From the NCBI GenBank assembly GCA_964615415.1, contig CAZTNI010000002.1, positions 4,873 through 68,872 of the forward strand: 64,000 nucleotides of DNA. Reading direction: 5' to 3'. The stretch is from an uncultured Candidatus Saccharibacteria bacterium. GTDB lineage: Bacteria > Patescibacteriota > Minisyncoccia > Phycocordibacterales > SBAW01. Under the pieces are notes generated by a model. That model did not search any database and was not told where the DNA came from. It saw nothing but the letters and a program-made list of their open reading frames with translations. Numbering within the stretch: position 1 is the first letter of the stretch; every line of letters starts with the position of its first letter. This document shows positions 26,081 through 34,821 of this stretch, piece by piece. The translations under genes were made by a program, and so were the position numbers.

Positions 26081-26214
26081 AAAATAATATTGATTTGTAC
26101 GATGGGTCCCTCAGGTCGAGGATTAATCCCATGCGCTTTACCTAATAATATCGAGTGAACCGATATTGCGAGCAAGAATAGCACAATTTTTAGCCTTTGC
26201 AAGGCAATAGAAAA

Positions 26215-26240
26215 GGCCGCCGCGATAGGTCGCGGCGGCC
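26215..26240 (-). terminator. rho-independent terminator (minus strand)
   Basis: GGCCGCCGCGA-tagg-TCGCGGCGGCC perfect 11-bp stem followed by TTTTCTATT on the minus strand. Confidence 0.65.
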
Positions 26241-26254
26241 TGTACTGAGTGTGG

Positions 26255-26631
26255 CTACGAGAGAGCCGGTCTGCCCCAAAGGGGAAGGTAGGAGGCCCCT
26301 CGGGAGAGAAAGGCACCGACGGAATGCAGGGCTCCCCGAAACCGATCGCCGAGTGAAGGCTGCACCAGCGCTTCGAGTTCGACGATGACGATATCGAGCA
26401 TGGGGCCGAGTTCCTTGTCGCCGGGACCGAAGTCGAGACGACCATCTTCGTTGATAGCGAAGAACGGTTCAGGAACGGGAATCACTTCTCCCCCGCGCTG
26501 GCGAGCAAACATACCCGCCTCGTTCGAGAAGAACTCCGTGGTGGAGTTCGGGTCGAGCTGGGACGCGGCCGCCGCTACGACAAAGCATGCGCAGCCAGGA
26601 CCACAGCCAACAAAGCTTCTCTGTTGCATGG
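26255..26631 (-). CDS. hypothetical protein (GC-rich island)
   Basis: Shine-Dalgarno GGAAG before ATG (MQQRSFVGCGPGCAC...); about 65% GC against a roughly 50% background. Confidence 0.4.
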
Positions 26632-26790
26632 AGCTTCCTTTCGTTGTGGGTACATCGTCCAACCAGGATGGGTGGGCATGGCTACTATACAACGATATAA
26701 GAAAAAGAAAATGCCCCCGTTTTGCTTTCACAAAACGGGGGACTTGGGGGAGCGTCAGCGTGGAAGGATGAGGGGAAAACCCCCTCGAGA

Positions 26791-27321
26791 TCAGGCAGCG
26801 ATACGCTGCCTGACGTTGTCGTTGGCGACAGTCAGCCTCTGGGCGCCGCCACCTCCGGGGCGGCGAGCCGTGCCGAAGCCGTGATCCACTTCGTGACGGC
26901 GAAGGCGGATCGTGCCACCGCGCCGGCCGAACCGAATCGTCGGGTCGTGCACGAGGGCGATGAGACCGTAGTCCGAGTCCTGGATAGGCACCGGGACGCG
27001 GTCGTTGTCGGCGCGGGCGAGGAGCATCGTGTAGAAGTCCTCGAACGGGTCGGCATCGAGCCGCGGCGGCGGTGTGGTCCAGTCATCGAGCGGATCCATC
27101 GGGATCGTGAGCGTGACCATGCCGGAGGCAGCGCCATTGCCGAAGGCGAGGTCCATCACCATGGCATCGAGAGGCGGGCCATGCAGGCCGACCATCACGA
27201 TTTCGAAGTCGGGGGTGATTCCGCCACCACCGCCAGGGTCTGCCGAAAGCGGACCGGCTGTGGCGTAGGGGCCGCAGACAGCCGCGACGGCGGCGCCTGC
27301 GAGAAGAAACGTGCGTTTCAT
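26791..27321 (-). CDS. secreted hypothetical protein (GC-rich island)
   Basis: Strong Shine-Dalgarno AAGGAGGAAGG; signal peptide MKRTFLLAGAAVAAVCG; Gly/Pro-rich. Confidence 0.55.
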   Translation of the reverse strand: MKRTFLLAGAAVAAVCGPYATAGPLSADPGGGGGITPDFEIVMVGLHGPPLDAMVMDLAFGNGAASGMVTLTIPMDPLDDWTTPPPRLDADPFEDFYTMLLARADNDRVPVPIQDSDYGLIALVHDPTIRFGRRGGTIRLRRHEVDHGFGTARRPGGGGAQRLTVANDNVRQRIAA

Positions 27322-27830
27322 TCCGCCTTCCTCCTTCTGTTGCTAAAGAGCAGTTACGCCTCCGAATATACTCCAGTTGCAAAAAAGCGCAATAAGGGGC
27401 GTGTGCATAAAAAAGCCCCTCATTTTGAGGGGCTTTGGTTTGGGAGCGGTCTGTTGGTACGAGCCCTATTTTGTTTTCTCTCTTGGTAGAGAAGAACACT
27501 CAAGGGTTGTTCGTCGCTAGACTCCTTTGCCTCGTCAGAGGCGGTTCGTCGATCGGCGTGCCGTTCGTGGCTACGCCGTCATGGATGAGAGGTCGGCGCC
27601 GGCGTCATACTACTGGAGGGTGAGCGTGCGCTTCATCGAGCACTCCTGTGGTTGGGCCCAAAAGGACAGTACTTCTTAACTATACACCCAACGGGTATGT
27701 TTGTCAAGCTCTACCAAGTGTGTTCTAAAAATGGCCTAAAATAAGGCTTTTTAAGCCTATTTGCGAGTGTATACAAAACGAGCCCCATCGGCGAATGTCG
27801 ATGGGGCAGTAGTGAAAAAGGTCGAGACGG

Positions 27831-28197: not shown

Positions 28198-28815
28198 ATG
28201 GTTATTAACTACCTTGGCGGCGAGTGCTTCAAGATAACTCAGGGCGACCTCACGATAGCGTTTAACCCTCCTTCAAAAGATTCTAAGTTAAAGAGCCCGA
28301 AATTTGGTTCGGATGTTGTCTTTACGTCAATGAACCATGAAGACTTCAATGGTATTGAAAACGTCTCCTTTGGCGACCGCGAGCCATTTATTGTGAGCGG
28401 TCCTGGCGAATACGAAGTAAAAGGTGTTGCGGTGCGTGGCTTCGGTACCGACTCGACCTATGGCGGTGAGAAAACGATCAATACTATTTATAGTATTTTG
28501 CTCGAGGGAACGACGCTCTGCTTCCTAGGTGCCTTGGGTACTGGCGACTTGCCGACCGCCGCGAAGCAAGAACTCGATGAGATCGACATTCTTTTCCTCC
28601 CGATTGGTGGCGAGGGAGTTTTGGACTATGCAGCTGCATACAAGCTTGCGGTACAATTAGAGCCGAAGGCGATTATCCCGATGCACTACACGCCAGAAAG
28701 TTTGAAAGCCTTTTTGAAAGAAGCGGGCGAGACGGTTGCACCGGTTGAAAAACTGACCGTAAAGAAAAAAGATCTCGAAGGTAAGGAACAAGAGATCGTC
28801 GTGCTCCAATCGTAA
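28198..28815 (+). CDS. MBL-fold (Lactamase_B_3 / UPF0173-like) hydrolase homolog, metal motif degenerate
   Basis: VINYLGGECFKIT..., DVVFTSMNHEDF in place of HxHxDH, C-terminal IIPMHYTP. Confidence 0.6.
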   Translation: MVINYLGGECFKITQGDLTIAFNPPSKDSKLKSPKFGSDVVFTSMNHEDFNGIENVSFGDREPFIVSGPGEYEVKGVAVRGFGTDSTYGGEKTINTIYSILLEGTTLCFLGALGTGDLPTAAKQELDEIDILFLPIGGEGVLDYAAAYKLAVQLEPKAIIPMHYTPESLKAFLKEAGETVAPVEKLTVKKKDLEGKEQEIVVLQS

Positions 28816-29078: not shown

Positions 29079-31544
29079 ATGGCAGAAGAGGAGAAGAAAC
29101 CAGGGAATAATGGCAATGGCATTGTAGGCCGCAATATTTCGCAGGAAATGCGCGAAGCGTACTTGGACTACGCTATGTCCGTTATCACCTCGCGCGCACT
29201 CCCGGACGTGCGCGACGGCCTAAAGCCAGTGCACCGCCGCATTCTCTACGCGATGCATCGCATGGGTCTTACCGCAGGCAGCCGCTTCCGCAAGTCGGCA
29301 ACAGTGGTGGGCGATGTGCTTGGTAAGTACCACCCGCACGGCGACGCGTCGGTGTATGACGCGATGGTAAAAATGGCGCAGGACTTTTCTATGCGCTACC
29401 CGCTTATTTTGGGTCAGGGTAACTTCGGTTCTATCGACGGCGACTCTGCTGCAGCTATGCGCTACACCGAGGCAAAGATGTCTCGGCTTGCAGACCAACT
29501 CCTGGGCGACTTGGACAAAGACACGGTTGAGTGGCGTCCGAACTACGACGGGACTCTTAGAGAGCCTGCGGTACTTCCGGCCGCAGTGCCAAACATTTTG
29601 TTAAACGGTACGCTCGGTATCGCCGTGGGTATGGCGACGTCTATCCCGCCGCACAACCTCAAAGAGCTTTCTAACGCGCTCCAGCATTTGATAGATAATC
29701 CTTCCGCAACGGTAGAGGACTTGATGGAATTTGTGTCTGGTCCGGACTTTCCAACCGGCGCCGTTGCGTTTAATAAAAAAGATCTGCTCCATGCATACTC
29801 GACCGGCCGCGGCGGCGTTGTGGTGCGCGGCAACGCAGAAATTGTTGAAGACAAAAAGGGTAACTTCCAGATTGTTATCACCAGTCTTCCATACCGCGTA
29901 AACAAGGCAGACATGCAAGAGCATATTGCCGACTTAGTGCGCGACAAAAAACTGGAGGGCATCCGCGCAATGCGGGACGAGTCGACCCGCGACATTCGCG
30001 TTGTGCTCGACTTAAAGCAGGGTGCGCACCCGCAAAAAGTTTTGAACTATCTCTACAAGCACACGCAGCTTGAGGACACCTTCCACTTCAACATGGTGGT
30101 GTTGGTTGATGGCGTGCCGCAGACGATGTCGCTCAAGGGCATCCTTGAGGAGTTTATTAAACACCGTCGCGAGGTAGTAAAACGCCGTACGCAGTTTGAC
30201 CTTACGAAGGCACAGGACCGCGAGCATATTCTCCTTGGTCTTAAAAAAGCGCTCGACCACATCGACGAGATCATCAAGACGATCCGTGCATCGAAGGATG
30301 TTGCTGACGCTCATAAGAACTTGATGAGTAAATTTAAATTCTCTGCACTGCAGGCAACGGCTATTTTGGAAATGCGCTTGCAGAAGCTTGCAAACCTTGA
30401 GCGCAAGAAGATCGAAGACGAACTCGCAGAGGTACAGGCCCTTATTGCAGAACTGACAGACCTTTTGAAGAGCGACAAGAAGATGCTCGGCGTCGTCCGC
30501 AAGGAAATCGGCGAAGTGTCCGAGAAATACGGCGACGACCGCTTAACGAAAGTTATGAAGGGTGGCGCAGGCATCATTAATATTGAAGACTTGGTGCCAG
30601 ACGAGGAGCAGGTACTTGTTATGACGCAAGGCGGTTACGTAAAGCGTACTAACCCAGAAGAATTTAAGCGCCAGAAGCGCGGCGGTGTGGGCGTTATCGA
30701 CCTCGACACAAAAGAAGAGGACTTTGTAACGACCTTCCTGACGACCTCGACGCACAGCGACGTGCTCTTCTTCAGCGACCAGGGTAAGGCGTATCAAATT
30801 AAATTCTATGAACTTCCGGAAGGGAAGCGCTCAACTAAGGGCAAGGCGTTGGTGAACTTCCTCTCGCTGACTGACACAGAAAAAGTGTCTTCGATCCTTC
30901 CGATGCGTAAAAATCAGAAAGAGGGCGAGAAGTTCCTCTATATGATCACCAAACAAGGTGTCGCAAAGAAGGTAGATGCAACTGCGTTCCACGACGTGCG
31001 TCGCAGCGGCCTTATTGCTATTAAACTCCAAAAGGGTGACGAACTTATTGCAGCACTCTTGGTAGAAAAGGGTGATGAAATTCTCCTTGCTTCAGCAAAG
31101 GGTCAGTCGATTCGCTTTAAGGAAAGTGATATTCGCTCGATGGGTCGCGCAGCAGGTGGCGTGCGCGGTATGAAGTTGGGTAGTGGCGACACCATCGTAA
31201 GTGCCGACGTTGTTAAGAAGGGTCAGAAAAACCTAGAGATCTTGGTAGTGTCGCGCAACGGCTTTGGCAAAACAACACCAGAAAAAGAATACAAGGTACA
31301 AAAGCGCGGCGGCAGCGGCATCAAGACCGTTAAAGTAACTCCAAAGACCGGCCCACTCATTGCATCGAAAGTAATTTCGAAAGAAGAGGGTGTAGGCGAA
31401 GACGAGATTGTAGTTATCTCCCAGAAAGGCCAAGTGATCCGCACTGGTCTTGCAGAAATCCCATCACTCTCAAGAGGCACTCAAGGAGTAAGAATAATGA
31501 AACTCCGCGATGGTGACGCAATCGCCAGCTTTGTTTGTATCTAA
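29079..31544 (+). CDS. gyrA: DNA gyrase subunit A
   Basis: [28 protein letters not shown] with the active-site Tyr region; GyrA-box-like QKRGGVG; 821 aa. Confidence 0.95.
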
Positions 31545-31556
31545 GTGTACTATTCT

Positions 31557-32795
31557 ATGCCTTCCAGTAAAGAAAAGGGTGATCTGCTGGAAGAGATAAT
31601 TGAAGAACTGTGCGTAGGAATTAAAAATGTAAAAGTATCACGAAATTTAAAAATAATTGGTAAAAAAACTAAAGAAGAAAGAGAAATCGACGTTTATATC
31701 GAAGGAAAACAAGGAGTATTTGATATAAAAATTGCAATTGAATCTAAAAATTATGGAGAACCAGTGGGTGTTGAAAAAGTTGAGAGTTTCAAAGCAAAGT
31801 TAGAAGATATTGCTGCTGATTTAGGTGTAATGGTGTGTCCAACTGGATTTACAGAGCCAGCAAAAAAACGAGCAGAGTTTGACGGAATTCAATTATTTGA
31901 GGTGTATGATGAACGGCTGGGTAACAGCAAATGGTTTATTCCTATTCGTTTCATTGAACCTGAATTAACAAAACATCGCTTTACTTTTAAAGGGAGGGGA
32001 GGTGGTCCTTTCTCAATATCTATAGATTCACAAAAATGGAGATTTCATATAGAAGGGAAAATACTCACAACTGAAGAGTTCACCACCTATCTGTGGAATA
32101 AAGGAAAGATTCCTCAAAAAGCAGGTGAACATAAAATTGATCACGGCGCAGTCGTTATTAGTGAAGAAGGGAATCCAGATAAGGTGCAATATTGTGAAAT
32201 AGAAGTAGATGTTGTAGTTGAAGAGCGATATTTTTTAAAATTAATTCCAGCCTCTTTTCTTAAAAAAACTTCTGAAAATAAACAAAATTTCCAAATCAAA
32301 TTAGATCTCTATTCTAAGGAAAAAGACATGTTAAATAATGGTTGGAGAAAATTTCTCACTTTAGAAGAAATGAACCAAGCGGCAGATATTGAAAATCAAC
32401 CAGAAGGAATTAGGGGTTTAATATTGCATCCGAAGTATACGTATGAGTATGCTAAAAAGCACGAATTGCGTTTGCATCCGCGACCTTTCGAAAAGATTCG
32501 CAGCGGCAAGCAAATAATCGAGTCGCGGCTCAATGATGAAAAGCGTCAACAGATTAAAGTCGGGGACCATCTTGTGTTTGCTTTGCGGCCAGATTTTGTA
32601 GAAAAAGAAGAGGTGGAAGTGGTGGAGCTAATCCATGCGCCCACATTCCGCGACCTATTTCTTTCGCGTCCACTTACGGAATTTGGTATAGAAGATGGAA
32701 ACATTGAGCGAGTAGAAAATATGTACGAATACTACTCCAAAGAAGATGAAGCAAAATACGGAGTAGTTGGTATAAAATTTAAAAAACATGGCTAA
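31557..32795 (+). CDS. Mrr-like PD-(D/E)XK nuclease fused to a C-terminal ASCH (PUA-like) domain; candidate modification-dependent restriction endonuclease
   Basis: N-terminus: EIDVYIEGK ... IKIAIESKNYG (D...ExK restriction-endonuclease core). C-terminus: FEKIRSGKQIIESR...IKVGDHLVF...VEVVELIHAPTF...YGVVGIKFK matches the ASCH fold (compare E. coli YqfB). The N-terminal two thirds are about 32% GC; the ASCH part is about 47% GC. Confidence 0.65.
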   Translation: MPSSKEKGDLLEEIIEELCVGIKNVKVSRNLKIIGKKTKEEREIDVYIEGKQGVFDIKIAIESKNYGEPVGVEKVESFKAKLEDIAADLGVMVCPTGFTEPAKKRAEFDGIQLFEVYDERLGNSKWFIPIRFIEPELTKHRFTFKGRGGGPFSISIDSQKWRFHIEGKILTTEEFTTYLWNKGKIPQKAGEHKIDHGAVVISEEGNPDKVQYCEIEVDVVVEERYFLKLIPASFLKKTSENKQNFQIKLDLYSKEKDMLNNGWRKFLTLEEMNQAADIENQPEGIRGLILHPKYTYEYAKKHELRLHPRPFEKIRSGKQIIESRLNDEKRQQIKVGDHLVFALRPDFVEKEEVEVVELIHAPTFRDLFLSRPLTEFGIEDGNIERVENMYEYYSKEDEAKYGVVGIKFKKHG

Positions 32796-33264
32796 ACCTC
32801 CACAACAGTCGCCGGATTTTCCTGATGCTTTTTATCGTGTGACGGTAAAGGGGATCTGTGTGCGTGATGGAAAAGTGCTTTTTGTGCGCGATGTCACGAA
32901 TAAACATCGTGTAAATGGTTCTTTAGAGCTTCCTGGTGGCGGGCTCGATTTTGGCGAAGATATAGAAAAAGGTTTTGTGCGCGAGGTGCAAGAGGAAATG
33001 GGTTTGAAAGTAAAATGGATGTCCAAAAAACCTTTGTATCTCTGGACGTCGAAACAGGGGTCGAGGCGGGGAATGGAATGGTACTGGGTGCTTGTGCTCG
33101 CATATACGTTTGATGTAGAAGATTTTAACTTCACTCCTACTGACGAATGCAGAGAGTTAGTTTTTCTCTCTAAGGAAGAAATGAAAGAACGTCGCGACGA
33201 CATGGCAACCCAGATTCAATTTTTGGTTGAATATTTTGATCCAAAGGATTTTGAAAATAAGTAG
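32788..33264 (+). CDS. NUDIX hydrolase
   Basis: Nudix box GGGLDFGEDIEKGFVREVQEEMGL (GX5EX7REUXEEXGU); the ATG overlaps the upstream stop by 8 nt. Confidence 0.85.
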   Translation: MAKPPQQSPDFPDAFYRVTVKGICVRDGKVLFVRDVTNKHRVNGSLELPGGGLDFGEDIEKGFVREVQEEMGLKVKWMSKKPLYLWTSKQGSRRGMEWYWVLVLAYTFDVEDFNFTPTDECRELVFLSKEEMKERRDDMATQIQFLVEYFDPKDFENK

Positions 33265-33343
33265 AGCAGATGGTTGACTAACTGAGGTTTTTGTACTATT
33301 ATAGTTTCGGAACTTCCTTACACACAACAGGAAAGGGAATCAC

Positions 33344-33841
33344 ATGGGTTTCTTTAGCTTCTTTTTTGGCGGGAACAAGAAGCCTGCGCGCCAGCAGTGG
33401 CCGCAGGACCGCTTTGTCCCGCCTCCGCCTCCTCCTGCGTCTGCTCATACTCATCGGCGGAAGCCGAGGTATGTCATCGGTCCGAATCGGAAGGTGTTCT
33501 ACCCGCAGCCGAATGGGACCTATCAGGCCGATGACGGCGCGGTCATCAACTCTGTCATCCTCCAGGGCTTGCTCGCGGATGGTGAGGTGGGCGGGTACCG
33601 TGCGGTTGAGACGTTGCCGGCTGACCTGGTGCGTCATCCGCAGCCGCCCAGCATGGGACACGGCGTGCCGGTCTTCGACGCTCATGCGCATCATCGCCAT
33701 GACCACGGACTGCATCATCGTCATGAACCGGCTCACACGCCTTCCGGCTTCGATTCAAGCCCGTCCCTGGGTGGTGGCTCTGACACAGGCGGTGGCTCTT
33801 CTGGCGGGGGCGACTCCGGTGGCGGAGGTGGGAGCTTCTAG
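33344..33841 (+). CDS. Pro/His/Gly-rich low-complexity protein (GC-rich islet)
   Basis: Shine-Dalgarno GGAAAGGGA; PPPPPP, HAHHRHDHGLHHRHEP and GGGSSGGGDSGGGGGS tracts; own terminator. Confidence 0.5.
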   Translation: MGFFSFFFGGNKKPARQQWPQDRFVPPPPPPASAHTHRRKPRYVIGPNRKVFYPQPNGTYQADDGAVINSVILQGLLADGEVGGYRAVETLPADLVRHPQPPSMGHGVPVFDAHAHHRHDHGLHHRHEPAHTPSGFDSSPSLGGGSDTGGGSSGGGDSGGGGGSF

Positions 33842-33865: not shown

Positions 33866-33900
33866 AGCCGCGGCACAAAGTGCCGCGGTTTTTCTTTTTG
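33866..33900 (+). terminator. rho-independent terminator
   Basis: CCGCGGCAC-aaa-GTGCCGCGG followed by TTTTTCTTTTT. Confidence 0.7.
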
Positions 33901-33939: not shown

Positions 33940-34362
33940 ATGCAGACAATTGAAGACAAACCAAAGGTAATAGAAAAGGTTGCGTGGACATACATACGCG
34001 ACGGCAAAGTGCTCATGGCTCGCTCACGTGAACAAACACTTTTTTATTGCCCTGGCGGCAAGATAGAGAGTGGCGAGACGCACGTGCAAGCGCTTGTCCG
34101 AGAAATCGACGAAGAGCTTGGTGTCAGTATTGTCCCTGACACGATAGAGGCGTTTTGTTTGGTTGAAGGTCCGGCGCATGGCCGTCAGGACACGCTGCTC
34201 CGCATGCACTGCTACACGGCAGACTATGTAGGAATGCTTACTCCTTCGGGAGAAGTCGAAGAATATGATTTTCTTGGTACTTCCAAAGAGGATCTGGCGC
34301 GAACAACCGAGTCTGGCCGCCTCTACCTTGCGCAAGTGCAGGTGCGCGGGCTTATTGCCTAA
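33940..34362 (+). CDS. NUDIX hydrolase (MutT-like)
   Basis: Nudix box GGKIESGETHVQALVREIDEELGV. Confidence 0.8.
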   Translation: MQTIEDKPKVIEKVAWTYIRDGKVLMARSREQTLFYCPGGKIESGETHVQALVREIDEELGVSIVPDTIEAFCLVEGPAHGRQDTLLRMHCYTADYVGMLTPSGEVEEYDFLGTSKEDLARTTESGRLYLAQVQVRGLIA

Positions 34363-34416
34363 GCGCCTGCATTTGCTACGATGCGCAGTATCTAGCTTTC
34401 AACAAGGGAGAGTAAG

Positions 34417-34713
34417 ATGACGCTTAAGCAGCGTCGGCGCATCAAGCGCCGGAATGGAATTCATGTGCCTACCCGCGCTTCGAAGCGCGGGTGGAAGGCG
34501 CGGGGCTTTATGGCCCTTGCTTTGGCACCGACGCCGCCGCGCGCTCCGGAGCCGGTCGCGGTACGCACTGTGGCGTCCAAGCCTCGTGTGTTGCCGGGGT
34601 CGACCCCTACGAAGCCGAGGGTCGCGCAGTTGCCGGAGTCGCTCATGAAGCCGGTCAGGCGCCCTCGGCGCAAGCAGCCGCATCCCGACGAGGAGCTTGC
34701 AGCAGCCGAATAG
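34417..34713 (+). CDS. small basic Pro/Arg-rich protein (GC-rich islet)
   Basis: Shine-Dalgarno GGGAGAGTAAG; KQRRRIKRRNG; own strong terminator. Confidence 0.5.
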   Translation: MTLKQRRRIKRRNGIHVPTRASKRGWKARGFMALALAPTPPRAPEPVAVRTVASKPRVLPGSTPTKPRVAQLPESLMKPVRRPRRKQPHPDEELAAAE

Positions 34714-34735
34714 CCTGCACTGTTCTTTTAATATC

Positions 34736-34766
34736 GCCGCACCCTCACGAGGGTGCGGCTTTTCTT
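34736..34766 (+). terminator. rho-independent terminator
   Basis: GCCGCACCCTC-acga-GGGTGCGGC followed by TTTTCTT. Confidence 0.7.
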
Positions 34767-34821
34767 AATCGTATCTTTAGCGGCACTGTAAGAAAATAAG
34801 ATCTCACACATCATATAGGGT

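Follow-up and report, generated by a model that had tools for sequence, protein, structure and literature searches.

Beside gyrA in the analysed window (the whole 64,000-nt stretch of a Candidatus Saccharibacteria contig), a single ORF encodes a Mrr-type PD-(D/E)XK nuclease joined to an ASCH domain, and its stop codon is overlapped by a NUDIX hydrolase gene. This arrangement is probably a chance juxtaposition, in which a mobile nuclease gene became fused to a resident ASCH gene next to gyrA, and not an evolved system. A solitary mobile Mrr-type gene with a product of ~300 aa would have entered a low-GC slot between gyrA and the resident ASCH gene, and the insertion event would have deleted the nuclease stop codon together with the first three ASCH codons, including the ATG. 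The loss of stop and start would have left one in-frame ORF of 412 aa, unique to the window genome. The resident, housekeeping-type NUDIX neighbour of ASCH would thereby have come to abut the fused gene and overlap it by 8 nt, in a genome where genes are routinely this close. The features of the locus are listed in Table 1.

Table 1. Features of the gyrA–NUDIX locus; positions are those of the window.
Feature	Position	Strand	Remarks
gyrA	29079..31544	+	Conserved left edge of the variable slot, outside any module; 80-91% identical to its counterparts on 11 related metagenomic contigs
Mrr_cat PD-(D/E)XK nuclease domain, residues 1-115 of the fusion protein	31557..31901	+	Pfam PF04471, conserved residues and predicted fold
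Beta-rich C-terminal domain specific to the Mrr-like nuclease family, residues 116-298	31902..32450	+	Target recognition presumed
Fusion junction, codons GCT AAA AAG (A299 K300 K301)	32451..32459	+	Stand where the ancestral stand-alone ASCH gene began with ATG-ACC-ACx
ASCH domain, residues 302-412 and stop	32460..32795	+	PF04266; ortholog of the resident stand-alone ASCH gene
NUDIX hydrolase gene, 158 aa	32788..33264	+	PF00293; Nudix box 32938-33006; resident lineage gene

The fusion ORF lies on the + strand and extends from 31545 (GTG) or 31557 (ATG) to 32795. The ATG start, from which the 412 aa are counted, is backed by the N-termini of homologs. The domain identities proposed in an earlier note on this DNA were borne out by Pfam, which matched Mrr_cat (PF04471) at residues 38-115 with 34.3 bits against a cut-off of 21, ASCH (PF04266) at residues 305-410 with 24.3 bits against a cut-off of 21.2, and NUDIX (PF00293) in the downstream gene with 47.2 bits. 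The two motifs cited for a D...ExK nuclease core (EIDVYIEGK and IKIAIESKNYG) and the four cited for the ASCH domain are all present. The predicted catalytic residues of the nuclease part are E12, D45 (31689-31691), and E62 and K64 (31740-31748). Across 44 family sequences, D45, K64 and E12 are invariant and E62 is nearly so (at least 90%), and the nuclease part deviates in 2 of 54 highly conserved family columns.

The nuclease domain was modelled by AF2 with a pLDDT above 90 as a restriction-endonuclease-like alpha/beta fold, for which Foldseek returned AF1548/1y88 (5.6e-6), AspBHI 4oc8 (3.1e-4), MspJI, BamHI and FokI. By sequence, the nuclease part had no match in the PDB. The C-domain of the nuclease family matched no known reader fold and no solved fold; the specificity of the enzyme would reside in this domain. 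An NCBIfam scan of the fusion protein gave no match. PADLOC returned sub-threshold matches only (PDC-S02, E 0.0022; mREase_IV, E 0.015, 11.9 bits, nuclease core only), and the fusion protein is no recognised defence system by the PADLOC models.

Outside the window, the nuclease is a stand-alone protein. All 43 homologs found in a search of 5.8 billion proteins are ~300 aa long, cover query residues 1 to ~297 and stop 0-10 residues past the YTY, where the ASCH part begins in the window protein. The family is spread patchily over Gammaproteobacteria, Peribacteria, Saccharibacteria, Melainabacteria, Moranbacteria and Nomurabacteria, and the GC content of the nuclease gene is mostly lower than that of its locus. 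The neighbours of the homologs vary and include an HNH homing endonuclease, a serine recombinase, an SF1 helicase and a type I HsdR with YgjP; neither an ASCH gene nor a conserved NUDIX gene adjoined the nuclease in 11 homolog loci. Pfam scans revealed no DNA methyltransferase next to the nuclease, either in the window (gyrA and NUDIX) or on both sides in the same 11 loci, and a type II restriction-modification system with a methyltransferase partner was rejected on this basis. A tblastn search of a phage collection gave no match; plasmid matches were only 30-36% identical, concerned the N-domain and were annotated as ‘restriction endonuclease’. The nuclease gene is solitary, and its distribution suggests that it is horizontally mobile. 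In the window, its product would behave as its stand-alone relatives do: a defence-type or selfish endonuclease without a methyltransferase, perhaps type IV-like.

Synteny with the 11 related contigs covers gyrA and the upstream Lactamase_B_3-like gene (28198-28815). On the 3' side of gyrA, all of them carry a stand-alone ASCH gene (113-117 aa) that is 63-81% identical to the ASCH part of the fusion, begins with M[IT]THEMRLHP and is preceded by an in-frame stop; the nuclease gene was found in none of these contigs. The gap between gyrA and ASCH measures 220-1340 bp in the relatives, with a GC content of 0.38-0.46 compared with 0.45-0.56 for the locus, and each gap holds a different ORFan. In this lineage, probably Patescibacteria/Paceibacteria, the gyrA-ASCH slot is a hypervariable spot of integration; in the window it is occupied by the nuclease gene. 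Genes located 3' of ASCH in the relatives encode RidA, HAD hydrolases, NUDIX and DUF1653.

The ASCH part deviates from its orthologs in 3 of 56 invariant columns. Among solved structures, those nearest to it in sequence are the archaeal Pyrococcus proteins PH0355/2z0t (E 7.6e-8), PF0469/1xne (2.8e-7) and PF0455/1s04 (4e-6). E. coli YqfB, to which the domain had been likened, was absent from the PDB sequence matches even at E<=10. In the region of the GxKxxExR motif, the window protein reads G-K-Q-I-I-E-S-R, in which E and R are kept, the canonical K position is occupied by Q, and a K is located one residue earlier; most close orthologs read G-T-Q-[IV]-I-E-S-R. The positions equivalent to K21 and T24 of YqfB hold Q and E, respectively, and the K21/T24/R26 triad is not present. 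The domain appears to belong to the ExR-type clade and not to the T-type YqfB clade, and the comparison with YqfB did not hold. The same ASCH subfamily is elsewhere joined to effector or nuclease domains, namely HD-CE, NYN and NACHT, with a weak match to REase_MTES_1575; ASCH-effector fusions thus recur and are presumably functional. For the ASCH part, AF2 gave a low-confidence model (pLDDT below 50), as the alignment has no depth in this region, and the model was left out. In the fusion, the ASCH half may still bind or process nucleobases or nucleotides as it did ancestrally, and would be a tethered passenger.

The position of the junction could be placed to the codon. An alignment with six relatives demonstrated that DNA homology to their ASCH genes opens at the fourth codon, CAC at 32460, and the peptide across the junction reads …YTYEYAKKHELR…. 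A compositional step falls at the same point: GC3 rises from 0.226 in the nuclease part to 0.397 in the ASCH part, and is 0.415 in the NUDIX gene and 0.506±0.054 in 21 other genes of the window. Within the 5.8 billion proteins, the window's own protein alone has both halves, and the ASCH part matches different proteins from those matched by the nuclease part. When 1.84 billion representatives were searched exhaustively with phmmer, the top matches covered either residues 3-300 or residues 300-410, and none covered both. In these searches, the nuclease-ASCH fusion is confined to one genome. The sequence across the junction was recovered independently in a second assembly of the run, in which a 943-nt Logan contig (SRR14271367_80975) is exactly identical to window positions 32381-33323, a span that runs across the junction of the two domains and on through ASCH and NUDIX; an assembly chimera was rejected for this reason. 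A look-up of contigs by exact sequence gave none for the fusion protein, and it was the look-up for NUDIX that led to this contig. Around 31545-32460, a search for target-site duplications and terminal inverted repeats gave only chance-level short matches, an observation that counts against the proposed insertion.

The NUDIX protein has a complete Nudix box, GX5EX7REVXEEXGL, at residues 51-73 (G51…E57…R65-E66-V-Q-E69-E70-M-G-L73, as read from the translation). More than 130 full-length orthologs, 46-61% identical and several of them named Paceibacterota or Parcubacteria, occur without the nuclease. In the related contigs L023/L037 and L031, all without the nuclease, orthologs are found 0.3-1 kb downstream of ASCH; the proximity of ASCH and NUDIX is older than the nuclease insertion. 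The scores against NCBIfam fall far below every equivalog cut-off, with 23.6 bits against 156 for NudG (NF007834) and 32.7 against 97.9 for MutT, and the proposed NudG-type role on 5-methyl-dCTP is not supported; the PADLOC match to this protein was weak (PDC-S07, 1.4e-8). We infer that the NUDIX hydrolase is a general housecleaning enzyme for nucleotides, with no link to the nuclease.

The 8-nt overlap between the stop of the fusion gene and the NUDIX gene (ATGGCTAA, 32788-32795) was confirmed, and the earlier note had taken it as a sign of coupling. Equally tight spacing is found throughout the window, where 14 of the 36 pairs of same-strand neighbours overlap or are separated by <=20 nt, and the fusion gene begins 12 nt past the gyrA stop. 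Tight spacing is the norm here, and the overlap is weak evidence of coupling. A scan for promoters and terminators gave counts that did not exceed the shuffle expectation, and it placed no terminator between gyrA and the fusion gene or between the fusion gene and NUDIX.

The earlier note had proposed an evolved three-part type IV module, in which ASCH directs the Mrr nuclease to modified DNA and a coupled NUDIX enzyme sanitises the modified dNTP. This is highly improbable. All three domains are intact, the genes overlap by 8 nt, and the weak PADLOC matches of both proteins (mREase_IV, E 0.015; PDC-S07, 1.4e-8 for NUDIX) would fit such a module, but the parts were not found together in any of the 11 homolog loci or 11 syntenic relatives, nor among the 5.8 billion proteins or the 1.84 billion representatives. 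The three parts also have three compositions, the NUDIX gene is widespread without the nuclease and was near ASCH before the nuclease arrived, the overlap is undistinctive in the window genome, and the NudG and MutT scores are below their cut-offs. With the fusion seen in one genome, the nuclease otherwise stand-alone, and both ASCH and NUDIX resident, the module is by now largely refuted by the comparative data. It is unlikely, too, that we are looking at a newborn functional fusion, i.e., one polypeptide in which the resident ASCH domain now serves as an extra reader of modified bases and targets or gates the nuclease in a type IV-like manner, with NUDIX uninvolved. The arrangement is a singleton, shared by 0 of 43 family members and 0 of 11 related genomes, and its junction is practically without a linker. 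The nuclease family has its own conserved C-terminal domain and hence needs no reader, and a DNA-reader function is without experimental demonstration for any ASCH domain (PMC11037411). Several observations nevertheless favour a functional fusion. Both halves are fully intact, with E12, D45, E62 and K64 conserved, which also counts against chance juxtaposition and implies that the fusion is either very recent, or tolerated or selected; moreover, the ORF was reproduced by a second assembler. PUA-like reader-nuclease fusions are, as the earlier note stated, a recognised theme of modification-dependent restriction (PMC6765204, PMC7897488, PMC11037411), and those of the PUA superfamily are established modification-dependent enzymes (PMC6765204, PMC7897488). 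The effectors to which this ASCH subfamily is joined elsewhere (HD-CE, NYN and NACHT) likewise favour a functional fusion and count against chance. The ties of ASCH clades to restriction-modification contexts (PMC4738411; bioRxiv 10.64898/2026.08.01.741249) also count against chance. Finally, K21 of YqfB is essential for deacetylase activity (bioRxiv 10.64898/2026.08.01.741249), and the Gln found in place of the canonical ASCH Lys, also in most close orthologs, suits a binder better than an amidohydrolase.

The fusion could also be apparent only, if an error of sequencing or consensus (the A5 run at 32453-32457 is one candidate) masks a frameshift between two separate genes, or if the fused ORF is a recent disabling lesion and ASCH is made separately from an internal TTG at 32466. 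Altering the A5 run by 1 nt would close the nuclease ORF after 319 or 326 aa, and the TTG, which corresponds to the ATG of the HEM motif in the relatives and thus to the ancestral second Met codon, is a usable bacterial start; the reliance on a single genome also favours this reading. We consider this improbable, as the junction is identical in two assemblies and A5 is short for a homopolymer error. As ASCH homology opens no earlier than codon 4, the ancestral ATG is truly lost rather than frame-shifted, and a shifted frame would add a tail of ~20-28 aa to the nuclease that is present in no homolog.

The nuclease resembles the type IV PD-(D/E)XK enzymes Mrr, MspJI and AspBHI in its Mrr_cat domain with an intact D…ExK, in its fold match to AF1548/AspBHI/MspJI, and in being a solitary gene without a methyltransferase whose patchy spread suggests horizontal transfer. 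A modified-base reader, expected of a type IV enzyme, is no conserved part of the family, as ASCH is missing from all 43 homologs and the C-domain matches no known reader fold. The fusion shares with the EVE-HNH enzyme VcaM4I, SRA-HNH and PUA + PD-(D/E)XK proteins (Lutz et al. 2019, PMC6765204; PMC7897488) the combination of a PUA-like beta-barrel and a nuclease in one polypeptide. However, the fusions of all three types are conserved families with demonstrated modification-dependent cleavage, whereas that of the window is found in a single genome and unites a mobile nuclease with a resident gene. The ASCH part is similar in sequence to stand-alone ASCH proteins (2z0t, 1s04, 1xne), and its orthologs are also stand-alone, at ~115 aa; the E…R of the GxKxxExR motif is shared with the TRIP4/EOLA1-like clade. 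Human EOLA1 and E. coli YqfB are free N4-acetylcytidine deacetylases. Unlike these, the window ASCH is joined to a nuclease and has Gln for K21 with a Lys one position earlier, and YqfB was undetectable by sequence. The NUDIX protein has the fold and intact box of the housecleaning enzymes MutT, NudG and NudI, and its best NCBIfam similarities are of the MutT/NudI/NudG type, but it scores far below the equivalog cut-offs and is part of a large family of ~155-aa proteins.

Read as a chance juxtaposition, the locus would be a cleanly documented case of a fusion arising from the insertion of a mobile nuclease beside a resident gene, with the ancestral state kept in 11 relatives. It also cautions that, in a compact genome, neighbouring domains and a short overlap do not attest to a functional module. 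Had the locus been a new three-part defence system, as proposed, it would have been a notable find; the comparisons point to a lineage-specific accident of gene order instead. If the newborn fusion were true, it would offer a snapshot of PUA-like reader-nuclease enzymes arising by accretion of neighbouring genes, and could be the first ASCH domain to act as a DNA-modification reader. The widely scattered, uncharacterised family of ~300-aa solitary Mrr_cat nucleases with a conserved second domain is outside current defence models, and is a reasonable candidate defence nuclease.

The gene arrangement described in the earlier note, a 412-aa ORF carrying Mrr_cat and ASCH domains followed by an overlapping NUDIX gene, was confirmed: PF04471 and PF04266 were matched above the Pfam-A cut-offs, PF00293 was matched as well, and the NUDIX ATG overlaps the stop codon of the fusion gene within ATGGCTAA. 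The N-termini of homologs favour the ATG as start of the fusion gene, and the Nudix box is complete (residues 51-73 of the NUDIX protein). From run SRR14271367, a different assembler yielded a 943-nt contig identical to window 32381-33323, including the nuclease/ASCH domain junction. Elsewhere in the window, short GC-rich stretches contain ORFs overlapping on both strands, with Pro/Gly/Arg-rich products.

Features of the window and of the compared loci (L handles) and homologous proteins (P handles)
Feature	Location	Strand	Details
Fusion ORF	31545 (GTG) or 31557 (ATG) to 32795	+	412 aa counted from ATG
Mrr_cat, PF04471	residues 38-115 of fusion protein		34.3 bits; cut-off 21 (Pfam-A)
ASCH, PF04266	residues 305-410 of fusion protein		24.3 bits; cut-off 21.2 (Pfam-A)
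ASCH motif GKQIIESR	32508-32531		E and R of GxKxxExR kept
NUDIX gene	32788-33264		PF00293, 47.2 bits
165-aa ORF	33344-33841		no Pfam match
Terminator-like hairpin	33866-33890		strong; 3' of the 165-aa ORF
Second NUDIX gene	33940-34362		140 aa; 0.7 kb downstream; PADLOC PDC-S07, 6e-14
GC-rich stretches	26200-27400, 33400-33800, 34400-34800		GC 0.62-0.68; window 0.50
gyrA-ASCH slot (L027-L039), examples	L037 5339-6000; L031 5061-6000; L038 3124-4249		
Stand-alone Mrr-like member	L014 2080-6894 (member with its neighbours)		directly 3' of type I HsdR (1066 aa) and YgjP metallopeptidase
Stand-alone Mrr-like member	L018 4579-6894 (member with its neighbours)		adjoins large serine recombinase
Stand-alone Mrr-like member	L010 5070-8054 (member with its neighbours)		flanked on one side by HNH homing endonuclease carrying HNH repeats, on the other by DUF5343 protein
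'RLNDEKR' ASCH homologs examined	P0315, P0246, P0263, P0324, P0320, P0046, P0289; L001 5001-5705		

Among 5.8 billion clustered proteins, 43 homologs of the nuclease part (39-60% identity) were found besides the window's own protein. All 43 are ~300 aa long, and their matches reach no further than the first 71-77% of the query; in the alignment their C-termini fall 0-10 residues past …HPKYTY of the window protein, an end point that coincides with the start of ASCH (…YTYEY/AKK/HELRLHP…). The nuclease half is a complete protein that stands alone as a rule. E12, D45 and K64 are invariant in the alignment and E62 nearly so, which means an intact PD-(D/E)XK site. The AlphaFold2 model (residues 1-300, pLDDT above 90) resembles, in its N-domain, the nuclease cores of AF1548 (1y88), AspBHI, MspJI, Can2, BamHI and FokI.

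Eleven full-length family members were found in species-representative genomes of Gammaproteobacteria, Peribacteria, Saccharibacteria, Melainabacteria, Moranbacteria, Nomurabacteria and others. The nuclease gene usually has a lower GC than its locus, and its adjoining genes differ in every locus (HNH homing endonuclease, DUF5343, serine recombinase, SF1 helicase, trypsin-like peptidase, SepF, GNAT, type I HsdR with YgjP peptidase). None of the 11 loci contained an ASCH gene, and NUDIX genes occurred in just one, 3 kb off. Judged from this pattern, the family behaves like a mobile, solitary gene. No DNA methyltransferase was present among the immediate neighbours in the 11 loci, and the fusion protein was not recognised in a defence-system scan with PADLOC; the family is thus one of Mrr-type nucleases lacking a methyltransferase, for which a type IV-like function, or another one in defence or as a selfish element, would fit. 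The surroundings of the members in L014, L018 and L010 are typical of mobile or defence elements.

Relatives of the window locus were located by a metagenome scan with the ASCH alignment, followed by tblastn. In 11 of 11 related contigs (gyrA identity to the window 80-91%), ASCH has an ortholog with 63-81% identity at a distance of 220-1340 bp 3' of gyrA; it is stand-alone, 113-117 aa long, with M[IT]THEMRLHP as its N-terminus and an in-frame stop codon preceding it. The Mrr-like nuclease was found in none of the 11. A 534-kb contig shows full synteny: Lactamase_B_3, small ORF, gyrA, 216-aa ORFan, ASCH (116 aa), 99-aa ORF and NUDIX. The ASCH half is thus a resident gene. The gyrA-ASCH interval has a low GC in every relative (0.38-0.46 vs 0.45-0.56 for the locus) and contents that differ from one to the next: ORFans, membrane proteins, a DUF4145 protein (L031) or, in the closest relative (L038), three small ORFs. 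It is a hypervariable slot, occupied in the window by the nuclease gene.

DNA homology between the relatives' ASCH genes and the window begins at CAC 32460 (His302). The preceding codons are ATG-ACC-ACx in the relatives vs GCT-AAA-AAG in the window, which shows that the ancestral ASCH start was replaced rather than just read through. A step in composition coincides with the junction: GC3 is 0.226 in the nuclease part (31557-32447), 0.397 in the ASCH part and 0.415 in NUDIX, vs 0.506±0.054 (minimum 0.425) in 21 other window genes. No flanking repeats were found around the inserted nuclease gene. Searching 1.84 billion representatives exhaustively with phmmer gave no protein matching both halves; matches span residues 3-300 or 300-410, never both.

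The NUDIX protein has >130 full-length orthologs (46-61% identity), several named as Paceibacterota, Parcubacteria or Patescibacteria, and orthologs also occur in unrelated gene contexts. In two relatives lacking the nuclease, an ortholog lies 0.3-1 kb 3' of ASCH, and in others RidA, HAD hydrolases, DUF1653 or an HTH protein follow ASCH; the ASCH-NUDIX proximity is therefore loose and older than the nuclease insertion. The earlier note took the overlap as a sign of co-expression. It says little about function, since 14 of 36 same-strand neighbour pairs in the window overlap or lie within 20 nt, gyrA ends 12 nt before the fusion gene, and the window scan found no terminator-like site between gyrA, fusion gene and NUDIX. 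NUDIX reaches no NCBIfam equivalog cut-off (NudG-type 23.6 bits vs 156, MutT 32.7 vs 97.9), and the suggested NudG-like sanitising of 5-methyl-dCTP is not supported; nothing supported a specific protective role. Within NCBIfam, the second NUDIX is most similar to the NudG-type model (40.9 bits vs a cut-off of 156); an ortholog is found at the corresponding place in L023, and directly 3' of ASCH in L027.

The closest solved relatives of the window ASCH are uncharacterised Pyrococcus ASCH proteins rather than YqfB, to which it had been likened. It shares the E and R of GxKxxExR with the TRIP4/EOLA1-like clade. Lysine K21 is reported essential in YqfB and EOLA1 (bioRxiv 10.64898/2026.08.01.741249), whereas the window and the majority of close orthologs (GTQ[IV]IESR) have Gln at the equivalent position; among the orthologs (L027-L039), only the L032-L035 lineage keeps Lys. 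This hints that members of the clade might not act as acyl-cytidine amidohydrolases. A role of ASCH as modified-base reader on DNA has been predicted, never shown (PMC4738411, PMC11037411). The same subfamily ('RLNDEKR') is elsewhere fused to HD-CE, NYN, NACHT, Tpt1/KptA, PNPOx and MsrA, with a weak REase_MTES_1575 match as well. The homolog P0045 has a C-terminal 'LILDGLHR' motif, ParB-like by eye only, and adjoins AAA_33 kinase, DUF1653 and NYN genes.

The evidence best supports an insertion event: the variable slot 3' of gyrA would have received a mobile, solitary Mrr-type nuclease gene, whose reading frame was joined to that of the resident ASCH gene, and NUDIX would already have been present as a neighbour. 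The evolved three-component module of the earlier note found no support: nuclease homologs occur without ASCH, and NUDIX orthologs without the nuclease. Both halves are intact: of 54 columns conserved in the nuclease family the window protein departs at 2, and of 56 columns invariant in ASCH at 3; a functional newborn reader-nuclease enzyme is therefore possible, if rather unlikely. The fusion is a single-genome, new variation on the known reader-nuclease theme, and the more reusable leads are the uncharacterised ~300-aa nuclease family and its unmatched C-domain.
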